Source of the DNA: Parcubacteria group bacterium
GTDB lineage: Bacteria; Patescibacteriota; Minisyncoccia; Moranbacterales; GCA-2747515
Direction of reading: 5' to 3'
Length of the DNA stretch: 64,000 bases
Assembly: GCA_041660065.1 (NCBI GenBank)
Contig: JBAZXC010000002.1
Coordinates: 240,768-304,767 of the forward strand
A program made the position numbers and the translations under genes. The notes under the pieces are model-generated. The model ran no database searches. It was not told where the DNA came from and worked only from the letters and a program-made list of their open reading frames with translations. This document shows, piece after piece, positions 3,001 to 55,134 of this stretch (positions are counted from its first letter, which is position 1; the number at the start of each line of letters is the position of its first letter).

Positions 3001-4099
3001 AACTCCCCTGCGTCACCGTAAACGATCCGCCTGTGACGATATTATTATTTTCATTGCGCACCTCCACGGTTGCATTGCACCACGGCGAAATAAATGAAAA
3101 TGCATTGGTGTAGAGATCCATACGATAGACAAAACTCGTCCCCGCAAAAGACACCGGCACCAACGTATCCGTACCATTGGCATTGAATTCTCCATTGATC
3201 GGATCTGTTGCACTGATCGCCGTGGTTTGTGAAAATGTCGGTGCAGTCCCGCTACTTGGATAATGCACGCGCGCATATTGCGCAAGCGTACCATCATATG
3301 TACCGACAGATACTTGATTGTTACTCGTATAACTTGCGGCATCCGTCACAGTTCCTTCTGCTGTATTAGCTGTTACATAATAGATCCTTTCTTGAGAACT
3401 GTACGTGAATGCATCTTGACGCGATGATACACTTGTTGCTGTTGCATTCCCATAATACATACATACTTCCTCTGTTACTCCCGCATCAATATTGTCCATT
3501 TTAAGCCAAATGCGCGTTGATGCCGTGTTCATGTCATCAGCAAGATAATATGGCAAAACATTGCCGTCTGCATCCACAAAGCGAATATCATCTCCGTCAG
3601 ACTGCATTTTACCCGCTGAAACAAGCGTTGCCGTATCCATGTCAAGATATACTTGATATTCTTCCTCGTCCTCTGCACCAGAAGTAGTATGATCAATATC
3701 AAAACACTTGCGATATACCCATGATTCCCCATTCCACCAATCATGCTGTGCCGTATCCGGTGAAATTGTACCAAAATGTCCCAATGTCAAATAATCATCC
3801 GCCACATCAAAAGCCTCAAGATCACTCTCGCCGGTTTCAAAATTGCCACTTGTATATGTACCACTATCAAACTCCGCCTTGGAATCAATATCTCCTTCTG
3901 ACCGCGTTTCATATTTTAAAAGTTGAATTCCTGTTTGAACGATGTTCCCGCTCTCCATAAAATTCTGAACGCGAATTTCTGCCTCAATAAATTGTGGTCC
4001 ATAGTACTGTGATGTGATGATCACAAGAACAAGAAAACTTACGGCAAAAACCGCAGCAATACCACGATACGCATGCATCTGCCCGATCTGTGTGATCAT
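1..4099 (-). CDS. Giant membrane-anchored surface protein with two DUF2341 domains and a LamG/concanavalin-like domain. Partial: the 3' end runs off the window start.
   Basis: Hand translation of the minus strand from ATG at 4099 gives MITQIGQMHAYRGIAAVFAVSFLVLVIITSQYYGPQF (N-terminal TM anchor). Downstream motifs include DIRFVDADGNVLPYYLADD...IWLKMDNIDAGVTEEVCMYYGNATATS (DUF2341 signature) and NDGTWHHVALT (LamG-like). No alternative long ORF exists in 1-4100; the gene is open at the window edge so it is absent from the ORF track. I spot-checked frame continuity at several points but not across the whole length. Confidence 0.7.
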   Translation of the reverse strand, partial: MITQIGQMHAYRGIAAVFAVSFLVLVIITSQYYGPQFIEAEIRVQNFMESGNIVQTGIQLLKYETRSEGDIDSKAEFDSGTYTSGNFETGESDLEAFDVADDYLTLGHFGTISPDTAQHDWWNGESWVYRKCFDIDHTTSGAEDEEEYQVYLDMDTATLVSAGKMQSDGDDIRFVDADGNVLPYYLADDMNTASTRIWLKMDNIDAGVTEEVCMYYGNATATSVSSRQDAFTYSSQERIYYVTANTAEGTVTDAASYTSNNQVSVGTYDGTLAQYARVHYPSSGTAPTFSQTTAISATDPINGEFNANGTDTLVPVSFAGTSFVYRMDLYTNAFSFISPWCNATVEVRNENNNIVTGGSFTVTQGSFYNLTTTNNAATGIANDSAVMVEVTNGCPIMGTHHSTASEASMPLIPAATEWYGVPSGNMELAAITNGTTINVYYSNNTSATYNLNRGQNVYLAVAGSEGSENAMRAVSNYPIGVNGNNDTDGAEMQTFLPVNEMGYRYYVPQAMQYFAVSTRAGISTTVNLYNNGTQCGVGVPSATSTVTPTGNYPGKVYFGSTTDGANIAAGACVVADHPIAAYYEYATQNDEHNILNEKQNRQFQYGVSQSVGVVESGSWDVEGITQQWSRRIPVTITNTSTATLTDYQVRVNVATDASALFAIAQSDGGDIRVAGGAGDGSDGIPYALEEYNGASSTGTIWAKVPTVAASTTTTFYIYSQPVLTLQTCNESEFNEGTYDETQWDGTDEWTELTSAGLTAGIGEYQSEVFDAGLLASWIDLTWISNYPTFKELPNNLGEEVDYGDGDVDMSTNLFLVHLNESSGTIDNTSGVTNDGTYNGALWSQSGRFNTSLGFDGVDDFVDFGQDLSTVIGGTGSVSFWMNTTQTGADVPWTAPGITGSEQASTGNDVFWGYITSTGRIAIQAGNTTGTQSTTVINDGTWHHVALTRNHVSGAVEVYVDGVLEGTGISETGIKTQYFNSIGRIYDSAGSHGWYRGRLDDVAFWSDIMSPTEVYDQYRRGANRLKFTVRSCNDSACSGETFVGPDGTAGTYYAEETNSTLTYPISSISNQTDNQYVQYHVDFESDDVLMSPELECVRVTYLGDPLESTGDYNAIFHTEAVKPNYYIVDSLSAVQQMVVISFRDGNDVSDGVTTRRLDEGEMVTLPYAIGVDQYDSYDVTGPLSIGFTGNATDSAIPISYAGTEFVYRVDAGTDVFSFYAPFSGASVQIQQSSTTGWTTLQTVSVGADSVITVTQDIINGRAFRIISDQPILGFHQASADNSFIMYPTALALEQDSGRYELYGVASGTLSLASSSTANVTLYRSSGTTSNITLNAAGNFVYTESGSGAQGTAYAYHIVSDAPIGATS

Positions 4100-4358
4100 T
4101 TTTTGATGATCAATCTTTTTTGACCTCTCTTTTTTTTGTATTACATGGACGTAATTACTCTTCAACATTTTTTGCACACGCCATTGTGCCGTCTTTTTTG
4201 CAATAAATCGACGAGTATTTCGCTTAACCTCTCGCAAAAAACCAAAAAAGCCCCCGAACGTACGTTCGGCAGATCCTATTTTATATATGGTTGATTTTTT
4301 ATCGCGGGGCATCGCTTTTTTTGTTTTTATATGTATTTTTTAAATAGGGGCCTATTTT

Positions 4359-6784: not shown

Positions 6785-7072
6785 ATGTTTGATAAAATAG
6801 AAAAAAAAATACATGACATTCAAAATGAACCGGAACACATACGCTTGCGTTATCTGTGGGGTGCGGTACTCATCTCGATGATGCTTATTGTTTTTATCTG
6901 GGTCATGAGCCTCAAGACAACCTTCCTACAAGTGCGCAATGACAAAGACATGCAAAAATCGCTTGAAACACTGCAAGAACAACTCGATACGATCAAAGCT
7001 CCCACAGATCAACAGTCCGTTTCCATCGATGATCTCTTACAAAAACCTGCATCACAACAACCGGAAATGTAA
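6785..7072 (+). CDS. Small membrane protein, hypothetical
   Basis: 95-aa ORF with one TM helix (LWGAVLISMMLIVFIWVMSL) and a Gln-rich C-terminus. Confidence 0.4.
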   Translation: MFDKIEKKIHDIQNEPEHIRLRYLWGAVLISMMLIVFIWVMSLKTTFLQVRNDKDMQKSLETLQEQLDTIKAPTDQQSVSIDDLLQKPASQQPEM

Positions 7073-7259
7073 GAATACGCATCACAACGCCATTGAAATT
7101 TGGTGTTTGATATCCCTCTTCATACACGATCATCCCCATTGAAGATGGACACCAAACACAAAAACATACAGAAAACACGCACATTTTACTGTTTTTTGTA
7201 TTTTTCGTGTTTATTATTAATAAAACACCCCATCCTAAACATCTAATTTATAAACTGTT

Positions 7260-14611: not shown

Positions 14612-15337
14612 CTATATGGTTTTTTTCATCTCGTCAATCCATCCAATCAATTCAAAAAACAACCGTACATTTGTGATCCTTACATGAATAGTGCCATGAG
14701 GTATTGTATTTTTAGCTCTTGTATTCTTACTATTATTTTTTACATGACTGACTTTCATAAAATTTTTTAGAGGTATTTTAGTTATTTTATGCCAATAATC
14801 CATAGATTTTTCTGCGTCAACATTCTTATGCGCAATGATTTGTATCTTCATGTTCTCTTTTGTAATATGAAGAAATTTTTCAAAAAAACGGATCATTATA
14901 GTAATCATTGCAGGATCTGAATTGGCAAAATCAATGCTTTTCCATTTACTGCCATAGGCACCTTTTTTATAGCCCTCTGACCAATACATTGCGACACCTG
15001 CAATAAATAAAGGGTCTTTAGTGTATTTATGGTATTGCAAAGCTGCAAAATCTCGTATCTTCTGGTGTTCCTCTTGAGATTTTTGAGTTTGTTGTCGATT
15101 CCTTTTTATGAGAGCTTTAACACTAGTATCATGTACACGCTTATGTATTTTTTCTTGCGCGAGTTGAGATAATGAAACATCTTTTAACCATGTGCTCAAA
15201 GTACTTTTTGGAATAGTCATTTTCTGAGATATTTGATTATAACTATATCCATTTCTGCGCAATTTTATAGCATCATCTTTGTCTTTTCTCATAAAATAAA
15301 TAGAACCTATAATACTATCAATGTACCATAGGTTCAT
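14612..15337 (-). CDS. Hypothetical HTH-domain protein; possible mobile-element/homing-endonuclease-like gene adjacent to the intron-containing tRNA
   Basis: 241-aa, AT-rich. N-terminal HTH (GYSYNQISQKMTIPKSTLSTWL, IS30/resolvase-like). Start lies 14 nt after the tRNA-Phe 3' end. No clear LAGLIDADG, GIY-YIG or HNH motif. Confidence 0.45.
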   Translation of the reverse strand: MNLWYIDSIIGSIYFMRKDKDDAIKLRRNGYSYNQISQKMTIPKSTLSTWLKDVSLSQLAQEKIHKRVHDTSVKALIKRNRQQTQKSQEEHQKIRDFAALQYHKYTKDPLFIAGVAMYWSEGYKKGAYGSKWKSIDFANSDPAMITIMIRFFEKFLHITKENMKIQIIAHKNVDAEKSMDYWHKITKIPLKNFMKVSHVKNNSKNTRAKNTIPHGTIHVRITNVRLFFELIGWIDEMKKTI

Positions 15338-15351
15338 ATTTATAACAATGA

Positions 15352-15662
15352 TGGTGCCGAGGGAGAGAATCGGACTCTCGACACAAGGATTTTCCTTATA
15401 CTGTCTTATGTTTCCATAAGGATTGGACTATATCATTCCCGCTGAGCGGGATTGGGCGCTATTTGCAGGATTATTGTTGGGACTCACCTGCTAGTCTCTA
15501 CTCCTTCCTTAACACTTTATACCCATTAAGGCTTGGATCGGGATTGTCATAATTCTATAAGAACCGTAGATTTCCCCGAATTCACCCAATTTTTCTCACT
15601 CTATATTGCTATAGAGGGGACCGAAAATTCAGTCCTTTGCTCTACCACTGAGCTACCTCGGC
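15352..15662 (-). tRNA. tRNA-Phe (GAA) interrupted by a group I intron (exons 15631..15662 and 15352..15394; CCA encoded)
   Basis: 5' exon GCCGAGGTAGCTCAGTGGTAGAGCAAAGGACT. 3' exon GAAAATCCTTGTGTCGAGAGTCCGATTCTCTCCCTCGGCACCA. Spliced product folds into a canonical cloverleaf with anticodon loop CTGAAAA. Confidence 0.8.
15395..15630 (-). ncRNA. Group I self-splicing intron (236 nt) in the tRNA-Phe anticodon loop, inserted between U33 and G34
   Basis: 5' splice site follows U, with a U.G pair in P1 (exon GGACU pairs with intron IGS GGUCC). The intron ends in omega-G (..UAUAAG|GAAAA). P2 hairpin CUCUAUA-gcaa-UAUAGAG. P3/P4 core AAAUUGGGUGAAUUCGGGGAAAUCUACGGUUC closely resembles the cyanobacterial tRNA-Leu intron core AAAUUGCGGGAAAGGGGUCAACAGCCGUUC. 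P7-like GAGACUA ... UAGUCC. Confidence 0.8.
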
Positions 15663-15683
15663 TCACTCAAATATTCATTGTTG

Positions 15684-15757
15684 TGCACGCTGAGGGATTC
15701 GAACCCCCGACCCTCTCGGTGTAAACGAGATGCTCTAACCAGCTGAGCTAAGCGTGC
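15684..15757 (-). tRNA. tRNA-Val (TAC)
   Basis: Cloverleaf GCACGCT..TTTACAC..TTCGAAT..AGCGTGC-A. Confidence 0.85.
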
Positions 15758-29098: not shown

Positions 29099-29890
29099 TC
29101 AATGGTCATCAGCGACGTGATGTACATCCTCCGCGTTGACCCACAAACCAGAAAACATGGCGGCCATTGTTTCGTGTATTTCACGCGAATGAATAAGCAC
29201 TGCTGAAATATTTTTCATAGATGATATGAACGCAACTTTATCATCAAATATGATAATCACCGATTGAAATTTGCCATGCATGATCTTTGGGAGGTAGCGC
29301 GGATTCCTGTCGTGAACGTCCTCAAGTGTCAATGCCTGTGCATCTGGCGTATGTTCCCAAAGTGATCGTGCTTTGATGCGGTTTTCTTTTCGCGTTTTAA
29401 TATAATAACGGGCATAATTACTATCAAATTCACTGAAAAAATTTTTCTTTGGTGCAATAATGCTCCATTCTCGACTGCGACAATACAGCGCTTCTTCTAC
29501 AACCAGCTTAATACCTTCACTGCCTTCAAAATGGGATACTGTGAAATCCTCTTCCTTTTGTTTGCTACGATCCATCAAAAGCGGAATGATCGTGTCAACT
29601 TCTTTTTTCTTTTCTTGTAACAATTTGATCTCTCGATCAAGAAATTTTTTGATATTCTCAGGAGATGTCATAGTGAACAACAATTTTGCACCTGTACCGC
29701 TCTCACGTTTTGACACCAATCCTTTTTGAGTCAAGGTATCGAGCGCATGATAGATCGTCGTTCGATTGATCCGTGTTGTTTTTTCCAACTCTTTCACACT
29801 GATTGTTTCATAAGAGAGTCCAACAAGATAAATATCAATTTCTGTATCAGTAAGACCCATTTCATGAAGAATATTTTTAATTTGAGACAT
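29099..29890 (-). CDS. TrmB-family transcriptional regulator
   Basis: N-terminal wHTH: LGLTDTEIDIYLVGLSYETISVKELEKTTRINRTTIYHALDTLTQKGLV. Confidence 0.75.
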   Translation of the reverse strand: MSQIKNILHEMGLTDTEIDIYLVGLSYETISVKELEKTTRINRTTIYHALDTLTQKGLVSKRESGTGAKLLFTMTSPENIKKFLDREIKLLQEKKKEVDTIIPLLMDRSKQKEEDFTVSHFEGSEGIKLVVEEALYCRSREWSIIAPKKNFFSEFDSNYARYYIKTRKENRIKARSLWEHTPDAQALTLEDVHDRNPRYLPKIMHGKFQSVIIIFDDKVAFISSMKNISAVLIHSREIHETMAAMFSGLWVNAEDVHHVADDH

Positions 29891-47657: not shown

Positions 47658-47819
47658 TCATATTTCCTCCTTTTTCCAGGATTTGTCCTGACGATTATAA
47701 GCTCTTTTACCTTGTGGTGTTCCGTGTGCACCACCACGATGACGCAGGGTTTCCACCGTTTCCGCGTGCAGTTTTACCGGCACACGCTCCAAAACAAACA
47801 CAAGCTTCTTTCTTTTCAT
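47658..47819 (-). CDS. Small basic protein (53 aa), hypothetical
   Basis: MKRKKLVFVLERVPVKLHAETVETLRHRGGAHGTPQGKRAYNRQDKSWKKEEI. Below the ORF-track size cutoff. Followed on the minus strand by a perfect terminator AAGCAGTAA-gaaacat-TACTGCTT then T-rich sequence (47622..47650). Confidence 0.4.
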   Translation of the reverse strand: MKRKKLVFVLERVPVKLHAETVETLRHRGGAHGTPQGKRAYNRQDKSWKKEEI

Positions 47820-47974
47820 TTCCTTTCTCCTTTTTTAGTTAGGATAAACAACATTTTCTTGTAAAATTTTTGTCTCACATTTTGAGTCACCTTTTTCATT
47901 GTCAAATGATATTGTGGATCATCATATGGTCGGGGTATATACATTATTTTCATAATTTTACATTAATATTCCCT

Positions 47975-48050
47975 CTAAGAAACCTCTTGCCAATAAAGTT
48001 TTTTAGAGAGAAGGGATCGCTGTAAATATACAACGATCCCCCTATAGAAC
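47975..48050. repeat. Nested hairpin repeat of the CCCTCTA...TAGAGAG family with inner GGGATCG...CGATCCC stem
   Basis: CCCTCTAAGAAACCTC...TTTTTTAGAGAGAAGG outer arms. Inner stem GGGATCGCTGTAAATATACAACGATCCCC. Confidence 0.5.
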
Positions 48051-48057
48051 ATCCAAC

Positions 48058-48348
48058 CTAACTAGCTGGTAAAAACTCCATATTATTGAACTCATCCATA
48101 TTTTTAAAACGAATAAAATATGGATGAAAGTGCCTCGGCATTCTCCGCGGTCCGGCAGGTTGCTGTGCAAAGATAAAATCCTTGCGCTCAGCGACCCTGC
48201 GAATATCGACAAGATAATAGACATTCTCGCGAATTTCATCTGCAGGTACAGATCCTTCTGTTGCTGCAGGAATCACGTGAACGACTTTTCCGTTCACATA
48301 AACCGTCACAACTTTTAGGATCAAATTTACTATCGTAATTTTTTCCAT
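48058..48348 (-). CDS. Hypothetical protein
   Basis: 96-aa ORF. No motif recognised. Confidence 0.35.
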   Translation of the reverse strand: MEKITIVNLILKVVTVYVNGKVVHVIPAATEGSVPADEIRENVYYLVDIRRVAERKDFIFAQQPAGPRRMPRHFHPYFIRFKNMDEFNNMEFLPAS

Positions 48349-48397
48349 GACGTTCTCCTGTGTTGTATTATTGAACTTAACTGCGTGATATTTTCCC

Positions 48398-48475
48398 TCT
48401 ACAATATTTCTTTTTTTGTCATTCCGGACTTGATCCGGAATCTTAAAAAAATATTGTAGAGAGAGATGAGAAGGT
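48398..48475. repeat. Nested hairpin element: outer CCCTCTACAATATTT/AAATATTGTAGAGAGAG arms enclosing GTCATTCCGGAC-ttga-TCCGGAATC
   Basis: Same architecture as 51605..51685, which has outer CCCTCTAAAATATTT/AAATATTTTAGAGAGAGG arms and an inner stem carrying compensatory changes. Confidence 0.65.
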
Positions 48476-48695
48476 ATAGATTTCTACACCTTCTCATCAG
48501 CCACATTCTTTCCCTGTGGCACGGGGACATTGTTCTTCCGGGCTGCAGCACGAATCGCACTGCCCAGAGAAACAGTTAACGGTTTACTCGGCCGGCACGT
48601 ACGCTGGCGGAGCTCCTTTGCCGGGATAAAGCCAACTATTTTTGCCATTAACCGACCTCCTTTGGTTAAATTTCACACGCACATTATGTAGCGTG

Positions 48696-48783
48696 TGTAC
48701 TACATTCATCAGCTTTTTTTACGTGGGCTTCCTCCACAGTATACGTCCGTTAATTTTCAAAGCCGGACGGAGGATTTCTCTCC
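48696..48783. repeat. ~85-bp structured repeat, copy 1 of 3 (also 51536..51615 and 52768..52850)
   Basis: TCATCAGCTTTTTTTACGTGGGCTTCCTCCAC...[CGTCCG-loop-CGGACG]...GAGGATTTCTC. Copy 2 has GGTCGG/CCGACC in place of the inner stem, a compensatory double change. Confidence 0.7.
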
Positions 48784-48978
48784 TCAGTCGGGGTTGCATC
48801 TGGGACATGAAACATCATCCCAGAGACTAAACAGACGTCCGCATTCCGCGCAGAGCCTGTCCCCCTCATGCACATATGCCAAGTGATCAACCCACATCTG
48901 CGGGTTATCACTTTTCTTGGCACGAGACAATCGCTGTCGGCGACGTCTCTCCTGAGATTCTATTTTTTTATCTCTCAT
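48784..48978 (-). CDS. Small zinc-ribbon protein, hypothetical
   Basis: 64 aa, Arg-rich N-terminus, CAECG...CPRC. Overlaps the upstream ORF by 11 nt. Repeat copy 1 begins immediately after the stop. Confidence 0.4.
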   Translation of the reverse strand: MRDKKIESQERRRRQRLSRAKKSDNPQMWVDHLAYVHEGDRLCAECGRLFSLWDDVSCPRCNPD

Positions 48979-49309
48979 GATCCACCTCCTCAGGTGTTGA
49001 GATAGAACCGGGGTGAAAAGTGCCGCGTTTCCCTTTCACGGAAACATGCCCATCCATCGTTATCGAACCAACGATTGATGGCGTCTTTTCACCTCTCACA
49101 TAACAGATGCTTCCAGGAGCAATTCCTCTCGCCTTAATCTCAGCGAGACGATTATCGATCACCTGCTGATGAATGATTTTCCCGATTTGTCGGTACAACG
49201 AAAATCGTACCGCGATCGGTATGGCATCAGGATTGAGATGGGGATAATGACTTATTACCACCTTCCGATACCACTCATTTTTCATGACAAAAGTTTTTCC
49301 CATGATCAC
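48968..49309 (-). CDS. Hypothetical protein
   Basis: 113-aa ORF forming an overlapping pair with the zinc-ribbon ORF. Confidence 0.4.
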   Translation of the reverse strand: MIMGKTFVMKNEWYRKVVISHYPHLNPDAIPIAVRFSLYRQIGKIIHQQVIDNRLAEIKARGIAPGSICYVRGEKTPSIVGSITMDGHVSVKGKRGTFHPGSISTPEEVDHER

Positions 49310-49852
49310 TCCTCCGTATTTGATTTTTTTGGTTTTTTCCCTCTAACATTCCACAAATCCAAATTTATGAAATTTTAGAGAAAGGAGATGGTTTTCATTA
49401 AAAACCATCTCCACGTCGTGCATTTGCTCGGGGACGATGATGTGTCGTTTTTCCCTCCGCTTGAATATCTTCTTCTTGAAGATTTTTTTCCTACGAGGCG
49501 CACATACCCCGCGATCCTTCCCATTGTTTTGGGATTGCGAGTGGAAGCTCGCTACTTCAGAAGGCCGGATTAGCCATATTGCTTCTTTGGGTTATGAGGA
49601 GAGTGCTCTCATAATTTACCCCAAAGCCTTACACCGGAGGAACATCATCGCCCCCGTTTCCCTTTTTCAACTGCATCCGGCCAAGATGTCAGTGAAGTGA
49701 GCTTCCAACTCACGATACCGGCATCTCAGGGATGTGATGCCACTCTCTCTGTCATTTCACAAAAATTATGCGCAATGACAGAGAGAGATGAATTGATCTT
49801 TAGCTCGAATTTCTTTTCATATGCCACCCATGGTTGTTTTTGCAAGAGAATT

Positions 49853-49898
49853 ATTTCCCTCTAATATATTACGAATTATCATGAGATATTAGAGGGGA
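49853..49898. repeat. Hairpin repeat of the CCCTCTAATAT...ATATTAGAGGG family
   Basis: TTCCCTCTAATATATTACGAATTATCATGAGATATTAGAGGGGAA. Confidence 0.55.
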
Positions 49899-49914
49899 AT
49901 AATTATTTTTTGAA

Positions 49915-50484
49915 TCAAGTGTGACAATCGATAAATAATATGAAACAATCAAGAGGATATGATTTCAATATTTTTTGAAACCTTTTTTTCCATATCTCAA
50001 ATTCTTTTTCGTTACTTTCACCCACGCGTATAAAATATTGGTCACTTGTAATCATTTTACAATCTGGAGTAAAAATAGCATGTTCAACAAATTCTTCATT
50101 CTTGAGCACATCTTCAATCATACAAACATCATAAACATTCCAATAATCAAACATTCCATGAGGATTTTTATCACGCATAACATAATATCTGCCATTTTCA
50201 ATGCCACTGGATAGATCACAATTCCAATTCTTTATTTTTTCCAAAATTGATTTTTTATTGTTTATATCCGTACTCCCATTCTTCAATATTCTGTCAACCT
50301 CATCCTGAGCATAATAAACCTTATATGGCTTCACCTTTTTGTCTATATCATAATGATTAAGAGGTTTAAAAAGCTTTCCTGTAAAATAATTCATAAAATT
50401 ATACTTGTCATTTTCTATTTTATTTTTTACATCCTCTCTGAGACTAAATTCAAATGGTATTACGGCAACAATTGTATAATGCAT
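49915..50484 (-). CDS. Hypothetical AT-rich protein (foreign-looking)
   Basis: 189 aa. Very low GC relative to its neighbours. No recognised motif. Confidence 0.45.
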   Translation of the reverse strand: MHYTIVAVIPFEFSLREDVKNKIENDKYNFMNYFTGKLFKPLNHYDIDKKVKPYKVYYAQDEVDRILKNGSTDINNKKSILEKIKNWNCDLSSGIENGRYYVMRDKNPHGMFDYWNVYDVCMIEDVLKNEEFVEHAIFTPDCKMITSDQYFIRVGESNEKEFEIWKKRFQKILKSYPLDCFILFIDCHT

Positions 50485-51125
50485 ATTTTTGTCAAAATCT
50501 ATAAACGTAATTACACTATTATTCCTCTAATATCTTACAAAAATATTTTATAAAATATGAGAGAAAAGCGAAGTTTTCTCGTTGAAATAATGATCCTATT
50601 TTATCCAATCCATAGAAACAAAGATTGGACAAAAAAAATAGCGCGTTTCGTGTCACACCTGGCAGCAAATGGTCAGACACGATTGGTGTTTGGAAGAATC
50701 AATATTCTTCCGCGAGGAGAAGTGACTGCCAGATCACACTACCTCTTACACTACAACTTGCACGAGAGTCATTAGATACTCTGCGATTGCTTGTTGCTTT
50801 TGCTTGATTTTGGTATTCTTTTACCAAAATGTTCGCAAGGGATCTCCGTATGTGGAGCGCTACCTCCCACCGACCCCCGGTATTAGCATCATTCATATAT
50901 CGAAAGATACTAATATCGAATGTCGACAGAATATAAATTATTAATGTGTGTATATTTTTCCTCAAATAATTTCAAATAATATTTTAGAAATTAGAGAAAA
51001 GCGAAGTTTTCTCGTTGAAATTTTACAGGATGTGTTGATCCCAACCTTGTTTTTTGCCCGGAATTGTGACAAGGATGTTCCCGTTTGTTTTTCATCGGCT
51101 TGGCGGGAGTCCGATTACGCTTGCG

Positions 51126-51440
51126 TTACTCTGCAGGCTTGGGGATGGCTTTCTTCCCCTTGGCAGGCCCGGTACGACCACTCAGGCTTTTGCCAAACTT
51201 CTCCAAAAACGGTTGATATTGCATCCGCTCTTGGTTCCGCTTGGCCGCCTCAGCTTCGGATTGTTCTAGCCCATAAAAAGGCACGAACTTTCCTTCAGCT
51301 TTTGCCTGCCTGGCGAGCTGTGCCCGACACTTCAGGCACACCGGAGTGGTCACCCACACCCCCTTCTCCTTGCGGAGGGCGAGAGAATGATTGACTGCGG
51401 TGCCATTACCAGCGTGTACTGCACAATAATCTTTTCCCAT
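51126..51440 (-). CDS. Hypothetical small Cys-containing basic protein
   Basis: 104 aa. CAVH...CLKC. Lys/Ala-rich C-terminus. Confidence 0.4.
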   Translation of the reverse strand: MGKDYCAVHAGNGTAVNHSLALRKEKGVWVTTPVCLKCRAQLARQAKAEGKFVPFYGLEQSEAEAAKRNQERMQYQPFLEKFGKSLSGRTGPAKGKKAIPKPAE

Positions 51441-51535
51441 AAGTCACCTCCGTGAAAATGGATTGATCTTGGATGGTTTTTTCGACACTATGCCGAATTT
51501 ATGTCGGTCATCCATACATACCCCGACAGAAATAT

Positions 51536-51615
51536 TTCATCAGCTTTTTTTACGTGGGCTTCCTCCACTTTTAGGTCGGTTAAATATTCAAAACCCGACC
51601 GAGGATTTCTCCCTC
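51536..51615. repeat. ~85-bp structured repeat, copy 2
   Basis: CATCAGCTTTTTTTACGTGGGCTTCCTCCACTTTTAGGTCGGTTAAATATTCAAAACCCGACCGAGGATTTCTCC. Confidence 0.7.
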
Positions 51616-51685
51616 TAAAATATTTCTTATGGATTCCCGATCAGGTCGGGAATGACAGGTAAAAAATATTTTAGAGAGAGGAAAT
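51605..51685. repeat. Nested hairpin element: outer CCCTCTAAAATATTT/AAATATTTTAGAGAGAGG arms enclosing GATTCCCGATCAGGTCGGGAATGAC (minus orientation)
   Basis: Direct read. Inner stem TTCCCGA/TCGGGAA, versus TTCCGGA/TCCGGAA in the 48398 copy. Confidence 0.65.
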
Positions 51686-51803
51686 ATGACATTGCATTAT
51701 TTCCTACTTCTTGTGACATGTGACCGCTTTGTCTGAGCGTTCTGGAGCTTCCCCAGAATATTATTTGTCAGTTTTTACACCCTCATGACATGGAGGGTTT
51801 ACC

Positions 51804-52013
51804 TCATGGAAAAAGGTCGAGGATCGCGATGACTACCTCATCCCGATTATGGGTCATACAAAAATGCTCACGACCCAAACCGTTGATGTAGTACGTTCTC
51901 GAACGAATTCCTTTCCGCAGACCCTTACCACAAAAGAGACAGGAATGATCCTTGCGGTTTCTGACGATCTGGGCATTCATAGCGCCCTTGACTACGTTAG
52001 GAACTCTCCTCAT
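51804..52013 (-). CDS. Small zinc-ribbon-like protein, hypothetical
   Basis: 69 aa. CLFCG...H.C..H. Confidence 0.35.
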   Translation of the reverse strand: MRRVPNVVKGAMNAQIVRNRKDHSCLFCGKGLRKGIRSRTYYINGLGREHFCMTHNRDEVVIAILDLFP

Positions 52014-52767
52014 AGACCCTCCTTGTTATTGATCTGTATTTGTTTAAAATCTCTCTAATACTTCACAAAGGTTTATTTTGAGCATATTGAGACACAAAAA
52101 AACTTCGCAAGAAAATTTATGTCCTTTAGGCTAAATATATTTACTATTTAGATAGCCCGATCTCAACCTTTGCGAAGTTTTAGAGAGAGGAAAGCGTGTG
52201 AGATTTTTTAAAAAAATTCTCACTTAAGCGTTGGCTTTCCGGGCAACGGTAATATTAAACTTCTCATCTGTGCAATCAGACAAGAAGCACATTGCAAAAC
52301 GTCGATAACGTTTTGCAATGCCCACAGAGTTTCTTAGTCATCTGTGGGTAGTGTGTGAAAAAATAGTGAACTAGATTGATCATGATAACCGAGTTTGCTA
52401 TAACTTCACTTTAGTTTGATTTTAAGGCACGTTTCTTGTGCCAAGGGAGACCATCTCCCTCATCAAACAGCCCGCCTGCCCCATATCAACGGTTCTTGGT
52501 ATAAACCAACCATCTCTAAGAAAGATGGAGGAGTTTGGCTCTGCACGCCTACACACTGCGCTCCGCACGCCTTTATAAATAGGTTATATACAACCTATCA
52601 CTCGTGTGTATTATCCCAATGCTATAAAGCGACAGGGATTATTAATCGCGTCTTGCTATTACACAAGGAATTCATATTTTTGGGTATTTCCCTCTAATAT
52701 CTCACAAAATATTATATGAGATCTTAGAGAGAAGAGATATTGATATGATAAATAATATCTCTACAAC

Positions 52768-52850
52768 GAGTTTCATCAGCTTTTTTTACGTGGGCTTCCT
52801 CCACAGTATACGTCCGTTAAACATTAAAGCCGGACGGCGGATTTCTCCCC
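52768..52850. repeat. ~85-bp structured repeat, copy 3
   Basis: TCATCAGCTTTTTTTACGTGGGCTTCCTCCACAGTATACGTCCGTTAAACATTAAAGCCGGACGGCGGATTTCTCC. Confidence 0.7.
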
Positions 52851-52867
52851 GCGGGTTGATACTATAA

Positions 52868-53104
52868 CTACGGAACGATCACGCCATATGTTGCTAATCT
52901 GGCGTGGAGATCATGGATCAGATCCTTGGAAGAAGCTTCAATCCGAATCTCGCCATGATGACCAATCTCACAGCTAATCCATTTTTCCTGCACAAAACAG
53001 CGATGTGCAGATGGTGCTTCGAGATCAATATCCTTATGGCATCGCGGACACCTACCCATAAGGCCGATACCCACAAGCCTTCCAATCCGTTTCATTTCAA
53101 TCAT
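52868..53104 (-). CDS. Small zinc-ribbon protein, hypothetical
   Basis: 78 aa. CPRCH...HRC...C..GHH. Repeat copy 3 lies 17 nt after its stop. Confidence 0.4.
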   Translation of the reverse strand: MIEMKRIGRLVGIGLMGRCPRCHKDIDLEAPSAHRCFVQEKWISCEIGHHGEIRIEASSKDLIHDLHARLATYGVIVP

Positions 53105-53129
53105 GGTAATCCCCCTAGTTAATTTATTG

Positions 53130-53258
53130 TAATATTCCCCTCGTTTCTTCCTAAAAATCTGTCATTCTGGACATGATTCGGAATTATGGATCAGTGTTTC
53201 ATGTTATTAAAGATCCTGAATCGCGCTCAGGATGACAAGAGCGCTTTTAAGAATAAAC
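53130..53258. repeat. Composite hairpin element: outer CCCTCGTTTCTTC/AAGAATAAACGAGGG arms enclosing two GTCAT...GGAATC-family hairpins
   Basis: Inner hairpins GTCATTCTGGACATGATTCGGAATT and GATCCTGAATCGCGCTCAGGATGAC. Confidence 0.55.
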
Positions 53259-53712
53259 GAGGGAAATATTAAATTGTTAAAGAAAATGAGAGAAATATCT
53301 TTAGTTCATTTAAATTATTGTACTTTTACCACCAATAGCTCATCATCACTGATAAGTAACGGCTTGGTGTGCCTGTAATACATGTGAACTGGTTTCTTGT
53401 GAAAAATGGTCGATTATATATTACTAAAAACCTATATTTCACTTATATTGTCACATGTATTACAACCATTCTGCCGATTGGATGTACTTACACCCTCCCG
53501 CACAGATCAGTCTTATGTCAAAGTAAAATAACTATCTTTGTTGTGCTACAGCCCTGTGTCATCTCGATCACTTCACTGTAACAACATAGTATATCATGCC
53601 AAAATTATTTTGTCAAGTGTCACTGACAATATATAGACATACACGCATTATTATTCTAATTTAAGGCTTTTTTTAAATTTTTATAAGATAATTCGCGTGG
53701 ACATTTTTAAAA

Positions 53713-53737
53713 ATGATGGCGTGATTTACGCCATCAT
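53713..53737. promoter_or_regulatory. Perfect 10-bp-arm palindrome (ATGATGGCGT-gattt-ACGCCATCAT) about 58 bp upstream of the -35; candidate operator
   Basis: Direct read. Not followed by a T-run, so unlikely to be a terminator. Confidence 0.4.
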
Positions 53738-53794
53738 GCAAAATTTACCGATGGATACGCCGTGCAGAGTTCCACACTGACCTGTTCACGGGTA

Positions 53795-53823
53795 TTGACA
53801 ATTATTTAAAACCATGCTATAGT
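53795..53823 (+). promoter_or_regulatory. Near-consensus sigma-70 promoter
   Basis: TTGACA, 17-nt spacer, TATAGT. Confidence 0.7.
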
Positions 53824-53829
53824 GTATCT

Positions 53830-54258
53830 TGGCTATGGCAGGAACAATATTTCTGTCTATCCGACGAAACATTGTTCTTTAAACATAAACCGCAACCCCT
53901 CACAAGCAAGAGGTTGCACAGAAGGAAGAGGCGTTACACAAGAGAGATTGGCTTTCTTGCGTAGCAAAGCTTTTAACTGGCAACCTTAACGTGGAGGTGT
54001 TGCTATGGGTTGTTGATATAGACCAAATTGGACCGTGAATGCCTCGTCTCGCTTGTTTAGGAGATGAGGTGTCCAAGACTTCCAATTGGTTTCTATTGAC
54101 GATTCATAAAAAAATATGAAGGAGAACATCATGGGTCTGTAGCCTGTATTGTTGAGCAATTTTCACAATCAACAAAATCCGTTGAAGAAAATTCATGAGT
54201 AAAAAATCCATCCAGTATTCTTCTGGATAACTGCAGTAAAATCCTGAGTTGGCTTATA
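53830..54258 (+). ncRNA. Candidate ~430-nt non-coding RNA of unknown class
   Basis: No plus-strand ORF of 60 aa or more between the consensus promoter (53795..53823) and a 12-bp-stem terminator (54221..54260). An early hairpin GAACAAT...ATTGTTC-TTT sits at 53846..53882. No tmRNA, RNase P RNA or SRP RNA hallmarks recognised by eye. Confidence 0.45.
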
Positions 54259-54260
54259 TA
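54221..54260. terminator. Bidirectional rho-independent terminator
   Basis: AATCCTGAGTTG-gcttatatag-CAACTTAGGATT followed by TTTTTTAT. Confidence 0.8.
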
Positions 54261-54265
54261 GCAAC

Positions 54266-55015
54266 TTAGGATTTTTTATTACTAACAGCTTTAATGGCTA
54301 ATTTAAAAATAGATTTTAAGGTTTCAGCAATATCTTTATTTTCTATAATTATTCCAATTTTGTCGCGATAGGATGTTAGACGAATTTTGTCTTTGTAGAC
54401 AGCAATGTCTCCAGGAAATATATAATCTGTCTTGTTTATTTTAATTCGAGTGTTGTTTTTATCACTTTCCAATGTTGATTTTTCAGAATTATAAAGAGCT
54501 CTTACACTCGATTTATTTTTTAATCGTATCCGTTTAAGTTTTTCATTTTCTTCTTTTGATATGAAATTGTCCATTTCATCCTTTGAAAAGGCTAACCACA
54601 TAGGCTCATCCTTTGTAAAATCAAAGCTTGAACTTGCCATTCGCATAATTCCCTCTTTCCCTAAATAATACTTCACAATCGGTTTTTTGATACTGGCGCT
54701 ATTGATGCTGTTTAATTCTTCCACAAGTCCTTTGAGTGTCTGTTTTTTTTGTTCTATAACTTGCTTTTGCTTTTCTAGGATGTTTTCCAGCTGTGCAGGA
54801 TCCTCCGGGACAAACATTTGCTTTTTTTCCTCATTTGATGCACTGACGAGACCGATCTTCATGAGATTTTCCAATGTAAAATACGTCGTTGCTCGATTGA
54901 CACCGGACTTTTTGGCGATCTCTGCCGCACTTCCCTGTCCCAATTCCAATGTAGCAATGTACACTTTTGCCTCTTTGTCATTTAGACCGATTTCTTCAAG
55001 TTTTTTTGCAAGCAT
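54266..55015 (-). CDS. TrmB-family transcriptional regulator (second copy)
   Basis: N-terminal wHTH: IGLNDKEAKVYIATLELGQGSAAEIAKKSGVNRATTYFTLENLMKIGLV. Confidence 0.75.
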   Translation of the reverse strand: MLAKKLEEIGLNDKEAKVYIATLELGQGSAAEIAKKSGVNRATTYFTLENLMKIGLVSASNEEKKQMFVPEDPAQLENILEKQKQVIEQKKQTLKGLVEELNSINSASIKKPIVKYYLGKEGIMRMASSSFDFTKDEPMWLAFSKDEMDNFISKEENEKLKRIRLKNKSSVRALYNSEKSTLESDKNNTRIKINKTDYIFPGDIAVYKDKIRLTSYRDKIGIIIENKDIAETLKSIFKLAIKAVSNKKS

Positions 55016-55134
55016 AATAATATATCAGATATTTATATGTTTGAATTATACAGCAAATCTTACCACTTGACAAAAATGCTAAATGGTGTATAATTCTAGT
55101 TCGTTCATTAAAACATATTAAAAACTCATAAGAG

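Follow-up and report, generated by a model that had tools for sequence, protein, structure and literature searches.

What is encoded between a near-consensus promoter and a strong terminator when no gene of ordinary length lies between them? The question is raised by a stretch of 64,000 nucleotides (nt) from a Parcubacteria group bacterium (GenBank assembly GCA_041660065.1, contig JBAZXC010000002.1, positions 240,768 to 304,767 of the forward strand; hereafter the window), in which an earlier reading of the letters (the original prediction) had proposed a novel non-coding RNA of ~430 nt. Judged by sequence comparison, this element, here called RNA1, belongs to a previously undescribed structured RNA gene family of Patescibacteria. 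Its predicted core consists of two translation-initiation modules flanking a long hairpin. The central claim of the original prediction, a stand-alone, promoter-to-terminator, structured RNA that does not code for a protein and belongs to no known family, is supported by homologues, by covariation, by the lack of a preserved reading frame and by the lack of a match in Rfam. The most distinctive feature of the region, a pair of Shine-Dalgarno (SD)/mini-open reading frame (mini-ORF) units, had been missed.

Promoter and terminator of the RNA1 gene

The promoter TTGACA-17-TATAGT on which the original prediction was based was recovered in our scan (P1; Table 1), and the pattern TTGACA-N17-TGCTAYAST is kept in the 12 homologues whose sequence includes the promoter region. 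However, P1 is not the best sigma-70 match in the window, as had been stated. A site at 55067-55094 (+) scores higher (12/12), and a divergent promoter, P2, at 53616-53588 (-) equals P1 in score (11/12 with TG). Note that the 12/12 site forms a divergent pair with an 11/12 site at 55073-55045 (-), the -35 boxes of the two overlapping; this pair (55045-55094) sits between the trmB-like gene described below and a conserved gene for a hypothetical protein of 120 amino acids (aa).

At the other end of RNA1, the strong terminator was found as described. It escaped a simple terminator scan, presumably owing to its internal bulge. In the homologues, a CUCCUGA...UCAGGAG-U5 hairpin abuts or overlaps the stop codon of trmB. 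The gene downstream of RNA1 encodes a TrmB-like regulator on the minus strand and is convergent with RNA1, in agreement with the original prediction. Its stop and last 4-5 codons fall within the 3' arm and T-run of the terminator, suggesting that a bidirectional terminator serves both genes. RNA1 is thus organized as a stand-alone small RNA (sRNA) gene, with a conserved promoter of its own, an intrinsic terminator and no co-directional gene directly downstream.

Homologues of RNA1 and analysis of coding potential

The window, which belongs to a Candidatus Moraniibacteriota bacterium, is identical to a Logan contig of run SRR18595301. DNA was fetched around TrmB orthologues and then searched with nhmmer. 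The profile search identified 13 further distinct homologues of RNA1 (loci L002, L005, L008, L009, L011, L012, L013, L093, L101, L103, L105, L109 and L110), with E values of 1e-24 to 1e-62. Together with RNA1 of the window these are referred to as the 14 homologues. The TrmB proteins of the 13 loci are 63-80% identical to the TrmB-like protein of the window, and in all 13 the RNA gene immediately follows the 3' end of trmB and is encoded on the other strand. The flanks differ, with NrdD/NrdG, FtsQ-like or Fpg genes upstream of trmB and LDH, Wzy or EngB genes beyond the cassette array described below. Because the genes outside the pair vary, the linkage of trmB and RNA1 is more than inherited synteny of a bigger block. 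Genome and metagenome scans used one query each. The metagenome scan, with the pattern GGCAAHC..GGAG..GCYATGGG....TRA, returned 12 matches, only one of which was a true homologue (L093), indicating that the family is rare in that metagenome collection.

By eye, the region had not been matched to RNase P RNA, tmRNA, SRP RNA or 6S RNA. The Rfam search that the original prediction had proposed as a check agrees with this. Against Rfam 15, which includes these families as well as OLE, GOLLD, ROOL, HEARO, raiA and riboswitches, neither RNA1 nor the divergently encoded RNA2 (see below) of the window reached a gathering score, and at E <= 10 the region gave only noise (best 24.5 bits, compared to a cutoff of 60). 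No Rfam match was obtained in 8 close or 13 distant loci. Thus, no known Rfam family explains RNA1. An identity as RNase P, tmRNA or 6S RNA was rejected, as no model matched and the domains are too variable for a housekeeping RNA. In the literature, we found no description of RNA1 or of integrons in Moraniibacteriota.

The claim that the transcript is free of ORFs held for ORFs of 60 aa or more on the plus strand, but two conserved 3-codon ORFs with strong SD sequences are present (see below). The longest plus-strand ORF between P1 and the terminator has 55 aa and starts within the -10 box. Could the region be a conventional small protein gene or a decayed pseudogene, its RNA structure being incidental? 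This 55-aa ORF and a 61-aa ORF on the minus strand did produce partial tblastn matches in close homologues. However, the matches covered only 25-37 residues and occurred in multiple frames and on both strands at once. Variable columns in the best-aligned subgroup were split 13/11/16 over the codon phases, loop indels measured 7, 4, 5 and 6 nt, and in other subgroups whole RNA1 segments were swapped for unrelated sequence. No frame is preserved with third-position bias, and no conserved protein frame, which would have contradicted the original prediction, was found in the homologues. We therefore regard a protein gene or pseudogene as extremely improbable.

Secondary structure of RNA1

The 447-nt RNA1 folds at -158 kcal/mol, compared to -107 ± 5.8 kcal/mol for dinucleotide shuffles (z = -8.7). 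When all homologues were aligned at full length (MAFFT and RNAalifold), hardly any consensus emerged, as variable inserts threw the helices out of register; the analysis therefore relied on alignments of subgroups and on a covariance model. These alignments contained 5-11 sequences overall, with 8-9 related sequences in each covariation test. The covariation figures support a conserved fold and are not formal probabilities, the sets being small and related and one alignment being fitted to the model. As the original prediction had suggested, folding and covariation were examined with homologous loci, and several helices showed compensatory changes.

In the 5' domain, equivalents of hairpin H1 in the homologues, read by eye, differ in sequence and in the length of the region. 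The pair in hairpin H2 becomes GGCGAUACC/GGUAUUGC in the L012/L013/L011 group, favouring a local hairpin, and the GGUUGC of H2 could instead pair with a second GCAACC at 53980-85. The stem of the hairpin that exposes the first SD sequence (SD1 hairpin) covaries, reading UGGCAAAC/UUUCGCCA in L012 and GGC..CACC/GGUG.GCC in L005. With the five closest sequences, RNAalifold preferred a nested alternative, in which the two GCAACC copies pair with GGUUGC and with the GGAGG region. The local hairpins are taken as the conserved fold because only they covary in the L012/L013/L011 group; the nested alternative is possibly a switch fold.

The middle of the molecule is a long irregular hairpin whose basal helix contains mini-ORF1. 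In the minimum free energy (MFE) folds of 14/14 homologues, 7-12 of the 12 mini-ORF1 nucleotides are paired. The partner strand ends ~10-20 nt before the second start codon and changes along with codon 3 of mini-ORF1. The inner module of the hairpin occurs in two types. For type I (eight sequences, including the window), 97.1% of cells were paired and 7 of 13 pairs were changed on both sides; 0/500 shuffles were as good, and slid controls were paired at 35-44%. Type II is found in six close homologues as CC-GAA-AG-[GUGACGAC...GUCGUCAC]-UG-AGUA-GG. A covariance model built from these six detected two loci with a TrmB of only ~40% identity, L033 (E = 4e-6) and L024 (E = 3e-3); a second round of the search (R2) gained no further members. 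In the type II alignment, 92.8% of cells pair and 10 of 25 pairs are compensatory, with 0/500 shuffles matching this. Thus, compensatory changes back a conserved secondary structure in type I, type II and hairpin H3.

The internal loop of type II resembles the loop E/sarcin-ricin motif (bulged-G, S-turn), with 5'-GAA-3' opposite 5'-AGUA-3' and covarying Watson-Crick flanks, an assignment made from sequence only. The GAA/AGUA loop occurs in L002, L005, L008, L009, L110, L101, L021 and L024. In contrast, the type I copy of the window carries an asymmetric 7-nt loop instead and does not show the motif.

Two SD-led mini-ORFs in each RNA

Two units were present in each RNA in 14/14 homologues (28/28 mini-ORFs kept), 104-133 nt apart from start to start. 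Each unit consists of a strong AAGGAGG-like SD sequence, a spacer of 5-9 nt, a start codon, 2-4 sense codons and a stop codon. Unit 1 has the form AUG GGN NNN stop, and unit 2 either this form or AUG GAC GGN GUN stop. Mini-ORF1 ends with TGA in ten cases and TAA in four, mini-ORF2 with TAG, TAA or TGA, and a sense codon is never found at the stop position. Codon 3 is free to vary, specifying C, G, N, H or A in mini-ORF1 and L, A, N, H, M, V or G in mini-ORF2. A use of RF1- or RF2-specific stops by the two mini-ORFs was considered and dropped, since mini-ORF2 of L103 has TGA.

These elements could be read without ribosomes. RNA1 might be purely structural or protein-binding, the GGAGG runs and AUGGG...UGA strings being helix strands or protein motifs, for example GGA for a CsrA-like protein and the loop-E-like module for another protein. 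Consistent with this, mini-ORF1 is paired in all folds and covaries with its partner, SD1 is placed in a hairpin loop, as CsrA sites are, and the type II CC-GAA-AG...UG-AGUA-GG internal loop with its covarying flanks resembles a protein-recognition module. Against this, SD, spacing, start and in-frame stop are kept together for both units across the 14 homologues, and all three stops interchange with each other and never with a sense codon. Some distant members use GUG as the second start and have different mini-ORFs (AUG GAC GAC UAA and others), yet the architecture persists. Moreover, just 2-4 GGA motifs are present, far below the number in CsrB-type sponges. A purely structural or protein-binding role is thus unlikely.

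Table 1. Features of the RNA1 locus in the window. Coordinates are positions in the window.
Feature	Coordinates	Strand	Details
Promoter P1 of RNA1	53795..53823	+	TTGACA 53795-53800, 17-nt spacer, TGcTATAGT; -10 box TATAGT 53818-53823; extended -10 TG 53815-16; scan score 11/12 plus extended -10
RNA1, stand-alone structured RNA, ~445 nt	53830..54279	+	Start inferred from -10 box, 3' end from terminator
5' hairpin H1	53841..53878	+	GAACAAUAUUUC...GAAACAUUGUUC; in MFE structure
Hairpin H2	53892..53917	+	GCAACC(CCUC)...GAGGUUGC; GCAACC...GGUUGC pairing
Purine-rich box	53919..53933	+	CAGAAGGAAGAGGCG; nearly invariant in window, L002, L009, L105, L110; absent from other subgroups
Hairpin H3	53933..53965	+	GUUACACAAGAGAG...CUUUCUUGCGUAGC; compensatory changes in four pairs (alignment columns 106-119/125-138)
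SD1 hairpin	53978..54005	+	UGGCAAC...GUUGCUA; loop shows GGAGG (53993-53997); last pair uses A of AUG1
Mini-ORF1	54005..54016	+	AUG GGU UGU UGA (M-G-C-stop); SD1 GGAGG 53993-97; SD+AUG+GGN+NNN+stop in 14/14 homologues
Long irregular inter-ORF hairpin	54005..54107	+	Basal helix: mini-ORF1 with 54096-54107
Type I inner module	UUGGAC 54028-33; stem 54041-50/54062-70; GUCCAA 54071-76	+	7-nt loop CGUGAAU; stem GCCUC...GAGGU; window + seven others
SD2 + mini-ORF2	54121..54142	+	GGAG 54121-24; AUG GGU CUG UAG 54131-42 (M-G-L-stop); 14/14 homologues
Variable 3' region, mini-ORF2 to terminator	54143..54238	+	Length ~13 to ~200 nt across homologues; sequence unconserved
Intrinsic terminator common to RNA1 and convergent trmB-like gene	54239..54279	+	Stem of 13+2 pairs (54239-54274), then T-run
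TrmBL2-like winged-helix regulator, 249 aa	54266..55015	-	Pfam TrmB PF01978, E = 4e-15; constant neighbour of RNA1
Perfect palindrome	53715..53739	.	ATGATGGCGT-N5-ACGCCATCAT; in P1-P2 spacer; unconserved in alignment of homologous spacers
Divergent promoter P2	53588..53616	-	TTGACA, 17-nt spacer, TGaTATACT; conserved in 11 loci
RNA2, ~320-nt structured leader, P2 to first palindrome	53262..53581	-	Holds AAAGAUAGUUAUUUUAC box; conserved in 11 loci
Integron-like array of ~10 small orphan genes	47966..53271	-	Imperfect palindromes between genes, cores YCTCTAA...TTAGAGR

Association of twin-unit RNAs with trmB-like genes

The closest solved relative of the TrmB-like protein is TrmBL2 (5bqt, E = 4e-7 over the N-terminal 140 residues). 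In total, 115 homologues of the protein were found, nearly all in Patescibacteria. Scanning 90 non-redundant TrmB loci for the twin-unit pattern, we detected 42 pairs within 800 bp of trmB (133 kb) and 6 pairs elsewhere (742 kb), 4 of these 6 at 844-944 nt from trmB. In both strands of the 64-kb window (128 kb), the only pair is that of RNA1. With one match in 128 kb and a ~40-fold enrichment beside trmB, the pattern is specific enough for annotating the family in metagenomes. Twin units near trmB are carried by 32 of the 90 loci, and in 19 of these 32 the TrmB protein is just 35-45% identical. Many of these loci also have a TTGACA-N17-TGCTATACT promoter and a terminator. Note that most distant twin-ORF RNAs are tied to RNA1 by architecture and position, at no significant sequence or structure score; independent evidence for distant loci is the position beside trmB and the covariance-model matches at L033 and L024.

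The twin-unit RNAs are always transcribed toward trmB, lying either downstream of it and convergent or upstream and co-directional, the latter in only 7 distant loci. This constant orientation is compatible with a control in cis of the trmB-like gene, in which the extent of read-through at the shared terminator would depend on translation of the mini-ORFs. Where the two genes are convergent, the outcome of read-through would be antisense transcription or interference; where they are co-directional, it would be attenuation. The overlap of the terminator with the last trmB codons fits such a control, as do a mini-ORF2 stop only 13-18 nt from the terminator stem in L011, L013 and L005 and a terminator ~40 nt upstream of the trmB start in L087. 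However, in close homologues mini-ORF2 is separated from the terminator by anything from ~13 to ~200 nt, which misfits the fixed geometry of an attenuator, and the effects of read-through on trmB would be opposite in the two arrangements. Furthermore, no conserved antiterminator pairing was seen, and the elaborate, covarying 5' and middle domains exceed the needs of an attenuator. Control in cis is thus quite improbable.

Several further observations were made at TrmB loci. A second TrmB-family paralogue in the window (263 aa, 29099-29890, minus strand) has no adjoining twin-mini-ORF RNA. A different terminated RNA with the same promoter type was found on the minus strand of L014 (6735-7400), L015 (1955-2600), L016 (5638-6300) and L020 (6717-7400). 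It contains a GUCAGUCGUC...GACGAGUCGUC structure and one SD sequence with a 9-26-codon ORF with a GPG motif, and is accompanied by a divergent conserved RNA with GGCACGGCGGUUCCGGAG...CUUCGGAAUUGCCGUC; neither RNA matches Rfam at these loci. At L058 (1914-1977), a distant Patescibacteria locus, a DUF3800-IX RNA (Rfam RF02968, 51 bits) was detected, which is unrelated to RNA1.

RNA2 and the neighbouring cassette array

On its other side, RNA1 faces P2. The distance from the RNA1 start to the -35 box of P2 is 212-225 nt in eight loci, and the sequence of the spacer is not conserved. The perfect palindrome noted in the original prediction as a possible operator is indeed present in this spacer, but it is not conserved in homologous loci and is therefore not supported as a family-wide operator; the idea of a conserved operator was dropped. 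In L011 (~3750-4330), L012 (~3860-4350) and L013 (~7020-7164), multiple copies of a perfect ~30-bp palindrome, TGTAGTGGACnGnCATGnCnGTCCACTACA, enlarge the spacer to 520-630 nt; this palindrome resembles repetitive extragenic palindromes and starts with GTAG.

From P2, RNA2 would be transcribed divergently from RNA1 into a cassette array, an arrangement found in a Moraniibacteriota subclade. RNA2 holds an invariant AAAGAUAGUUAUU box and ends at a conserved UUUAACAAUUUAAUAUUUCCCUC that leads into the first palindrome. Its fold has a z-score of -4.6, and two helices show 9 compensatory pairs (11 sequences). RNAduplex analysis of whole RNA1 against RNA2 gave meaningless global pairings, and no conserved complementarity of RNA1 with RNA2 or with the repeats was established.

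All seven matches of the window to the YCTCTAA...TTAGAGR pattern fall inside the array interval. None of the cassette proteins could be assigned to a Pfam or PHROG family. Other genomes carry cassettes of the array in other combinations: window positions 48457-49764 are 95% identical over 1.3 kb to L002 13046-14354, although TrmB of L002 is only 76% identical, and the homology breakpoints lie exactly at CTCTAA| and |TTAGAG. An element of 79-84 nt with two small hairpins, TTCATCAGCTTTTTTTACGTGGGCTTCCTCCAC...GGATTTCTC, lies in the 5' regions of cassettes. The array has three copies of it (48705-48783, 51536-51614 and 52772-52850), and copies of 80-93% identity were found in the arrays of L002, L008, L009, L011, L021, L103, L105 and L110. 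A conserved basic ORF of 53 aa (MKRKKLVFVLERVPVKLHAETVETLRHRGGAHGTPQGKRAYNRQ..., 47658-47819, minus strand), with no Pfam family, lies between the array and the LDH gene and is found at the equivalent place in L002, L008, L103 and L108.

In genomic context, the array resembles an integron platform (intI, Pc, attI and attC cassettes) or a cluster of attC sites lacking an integrase (CALIN). A promoter reads into promoter-less small orphan genes separated by imperfect palindromes, YCTCTAA...TTAGAGR resembles the R''/R' sites RYYYAAC...GTTRRRY, and the cassettes are shuffled with breakpoints at the cores. In contrast to integrons, the array cores match 5/7 attC positions and do not have the conserved G/C next to TT/AA, RNA1 holds the position of intI, and a 320-nt leader, RNA2, lies ahead of the first repeat. 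Searches of the window revealed no integrase: a tblastn comparison with approximate IntI1 and XerD sequences gave nothing better than E = 0.14, and no recombinase appeared in Pfam scans of 40 window ORFs (about half of those in the window) or in the locus gene tables within 8-10 kb. In the literature on Patescibacteria we found nothing comparable to an integrase-less, integron-like array. RNA1 marks the conserved end of this shuffled array.

RNA1, RNA2 and the TrmB-like protein might accordingly form the conserved platform of the array, serving instead of an integrase gene in the expression or recombination of cassettes. This would account for RNA1 sitting where intI does in integrons, divergent from the cassette-reading promoter, for a platform that is conserved while the cassette content differs, for the breakpoints at YCTCTAA/TTAGAGR cores and for the constant P1-P2 spacing, and it is in line with the lack of a tyrosine recombinase in the window. 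However, the Pfam scan covered only about half of the window ORFs, the genome could encode a recombinase outside the window, and RNA1 showed no complementarity to the repeat cores. Moreover, among the examined loci the palindrome search found arrays only in the Moraniibacteriota subclade and in L021 and L053, and twin-mini-ORF RNAs stand beside TrmB-like genes at many loci where it found none. We consider a platform function very improbable. Since RNA1-type RNAs occur at so many loci without a detected array, their primary partner would be the regulator gene rather than the repeats, and the array appears to be a lineage-specific neighbour, not a defining partner. The possible link to the adjacent repeats raised in the original prediction thus holds as conserved synteny inside one Moraniibacteriota subclade, but does not extend to the many Patescibacteria loci that have the RNA and no detected array.

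Elsewhere in the window, a group I intron (Rfam RF00028, 79.6 bits; 15404-15640, minus strand) is located in a tRNA gene cluster. It adjoins tRNA-Val (15683-15757) and a 241-aa ORF with a homeodomain-like helix-turn-helix (14612-15337). ARAGORN called no interrupted tRNA around it.

A model of RNA1 function

The reading we prefer, and hold with about even confidence, is that RNA1 is a regulatory RNA that engages ribosomes, its partner being the TrmB-like regulator. With SD1 in a hairpin loop and mini-ORF1 forming the 5' side of the basal helix, the RNA would either fold or load a ribosome, but not both at once. Ribosomes would bind SD1/AUG1 only once the basal helix opens, and a brief initiation-termination cycle of the 30S/70S ribosome on mini-ORF1 would keep it open. 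Opening would in turn alter the exposure of the hairpin module and of the second site. RNA1 may in this way work as a sensor or switch of the translation state, or as a ribosome decoy; with its opening dependent on ribosomes, the RNA would report on, or consume, translational capacity. Since the ORFs have 3-4 codons and a variable third residue, it is the act of translation, not the product, that would matter. RNA1 and the adjacent TrmBL2-like DNA-binding protein may form a regulatory pair, in the simplest form of which the protein would control the near-consensus promoters P1 and P2.

Several points weigh against a ribosome-engaging RNA paired with TrmB. Common descent of the sequences makes the shuffle controls overstate significance. 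Both the 5' domain and the hairpin module exist as non-homologous variants (type I/II), leaving no single ligand or protein site throughout the family. Conservation of AUGGG...UGA could partly reflect a role as helix strand instead of translation, and a 3-codon product is too short for a functional peptide, which makes the purpose of translating it speculative. At the distant loci, shortness of the ORFs is not independent evidence, since the search pattern demanded short ORFs. Furthermore, L014, L015, L016 and L020, where TrmB is ~50% identical, have the promoter and a structured RNA with a single 9-26-codon ORF instead of the twin units, and in L111, with a 57% identical TrmB, no RNA follows trmB.

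A bolder version of a ribosome-engaging RNA, which we judge decidedly unlikely, is that RNA1 represents a functionally new class of translation-gated RNAs widespread in Patescibacteria, in which two decoy starts would cycle ribosomes on 3-codon frames. If strongly expressed, such an RNA could slow global translation or sense it under the control of TrmB, and in Moraniibacteriota it would be wired to cassette-array expression. Patescibacteria cells have been reported to hold only tens of ribosomes. If this version were true, a translation-gated RNA1 would be the ribosome-directed counterpart of 6S RNA with its handling of RNA polymerase.

The Patescibacteria (candidate phyla radiation, CPR) account for a major part of bacterial diversity and are largely uncultured, and to our knowledge hardly any regulatory RNAs have been described in them. 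The RNA1 signature, twin SD/3-codon units around a covarying hairpin beside a TrmBL2-like regulator, offers a testable entry to regulation in minimal cells. If ribosomes load on RNA1, this would be a new coupling of RNA structure to translation outside the leader context.

Comparison with known regulatory RNAs

RNA1 was compared with four kinds of known systems. Leader-peptide attenuators and minigenes (trpL, ermCL/ermDL-type leaders, lambda bar) likewise have a strong SD sequence and a tiny ORF in an alternative structure upstream of an intrinsic terminator, and ribosome occupancy would be expected to remodel the fold in both. The bar minigenes of phage lambda are only 2-3 codons long. RNA1 appears to share the short SD-led ORF upstream of a terminator. 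In contrast to the attenuators, it has no co-directional downstream gene to regulate in the window and the 13 close homologues, the next gene being convergent. RNA1 also differs in having two mini-ORFs split by a conserved ~100-nt hairpin, a variable spacing to the terminator and codons that show no regulatory amino-acid run.

Dual-function sRNAs (SgrS/SgrT, RNAIII/hld and SR1/SR1P) resemble RNA1 in being transcribed independently, each from a promoter to a terminator of its own, and in joining a structured RNA to an ORF. These sRNAs encode peptides of ~26-45 aa with conserved sequence. The ORFs of RNA1, in contrast, have 3-4 codons and a variable third residue and do not specify a functional peptide of this kind.

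CsrB/RsmZ sponges share with RNA1 the SD-like GGA motifs, one of which is exposed in a hairpin loop in RNA1, and like them RNA1 could titrate a factor that binds ribosome-binding sites. However, RNA1 has 2-4 GGAGG/GGAG motifs, compared to 7-22 in the sponges, and couples them to properly spaced start and stop codons. No csrA gene was seen in the 64-kb window.

The prgQ/prgX system of plasmid pCF10 is similar in that a terminated RNA of ~400 nt with a short ORF is directed at the gene for a helix-turn-helix regulator and overlaps it in part. There, prgQ encodes a 22-aa precursor of a secreted pheromone, and the prgQ and prgX transcripts overlap extensively as antisense RNAs. In contrast, RNA1 and trmB overlap by ~10-15 nt at their 3' ends, and the RNA1 ORFs are too short for a secreted signal.

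In conclusion, RNA1, as predicted here, departs from each of the compared systems in a defining feature. As a regulatory RNA bearing short ORFs, it has a fair chance of representing a functionally new class.

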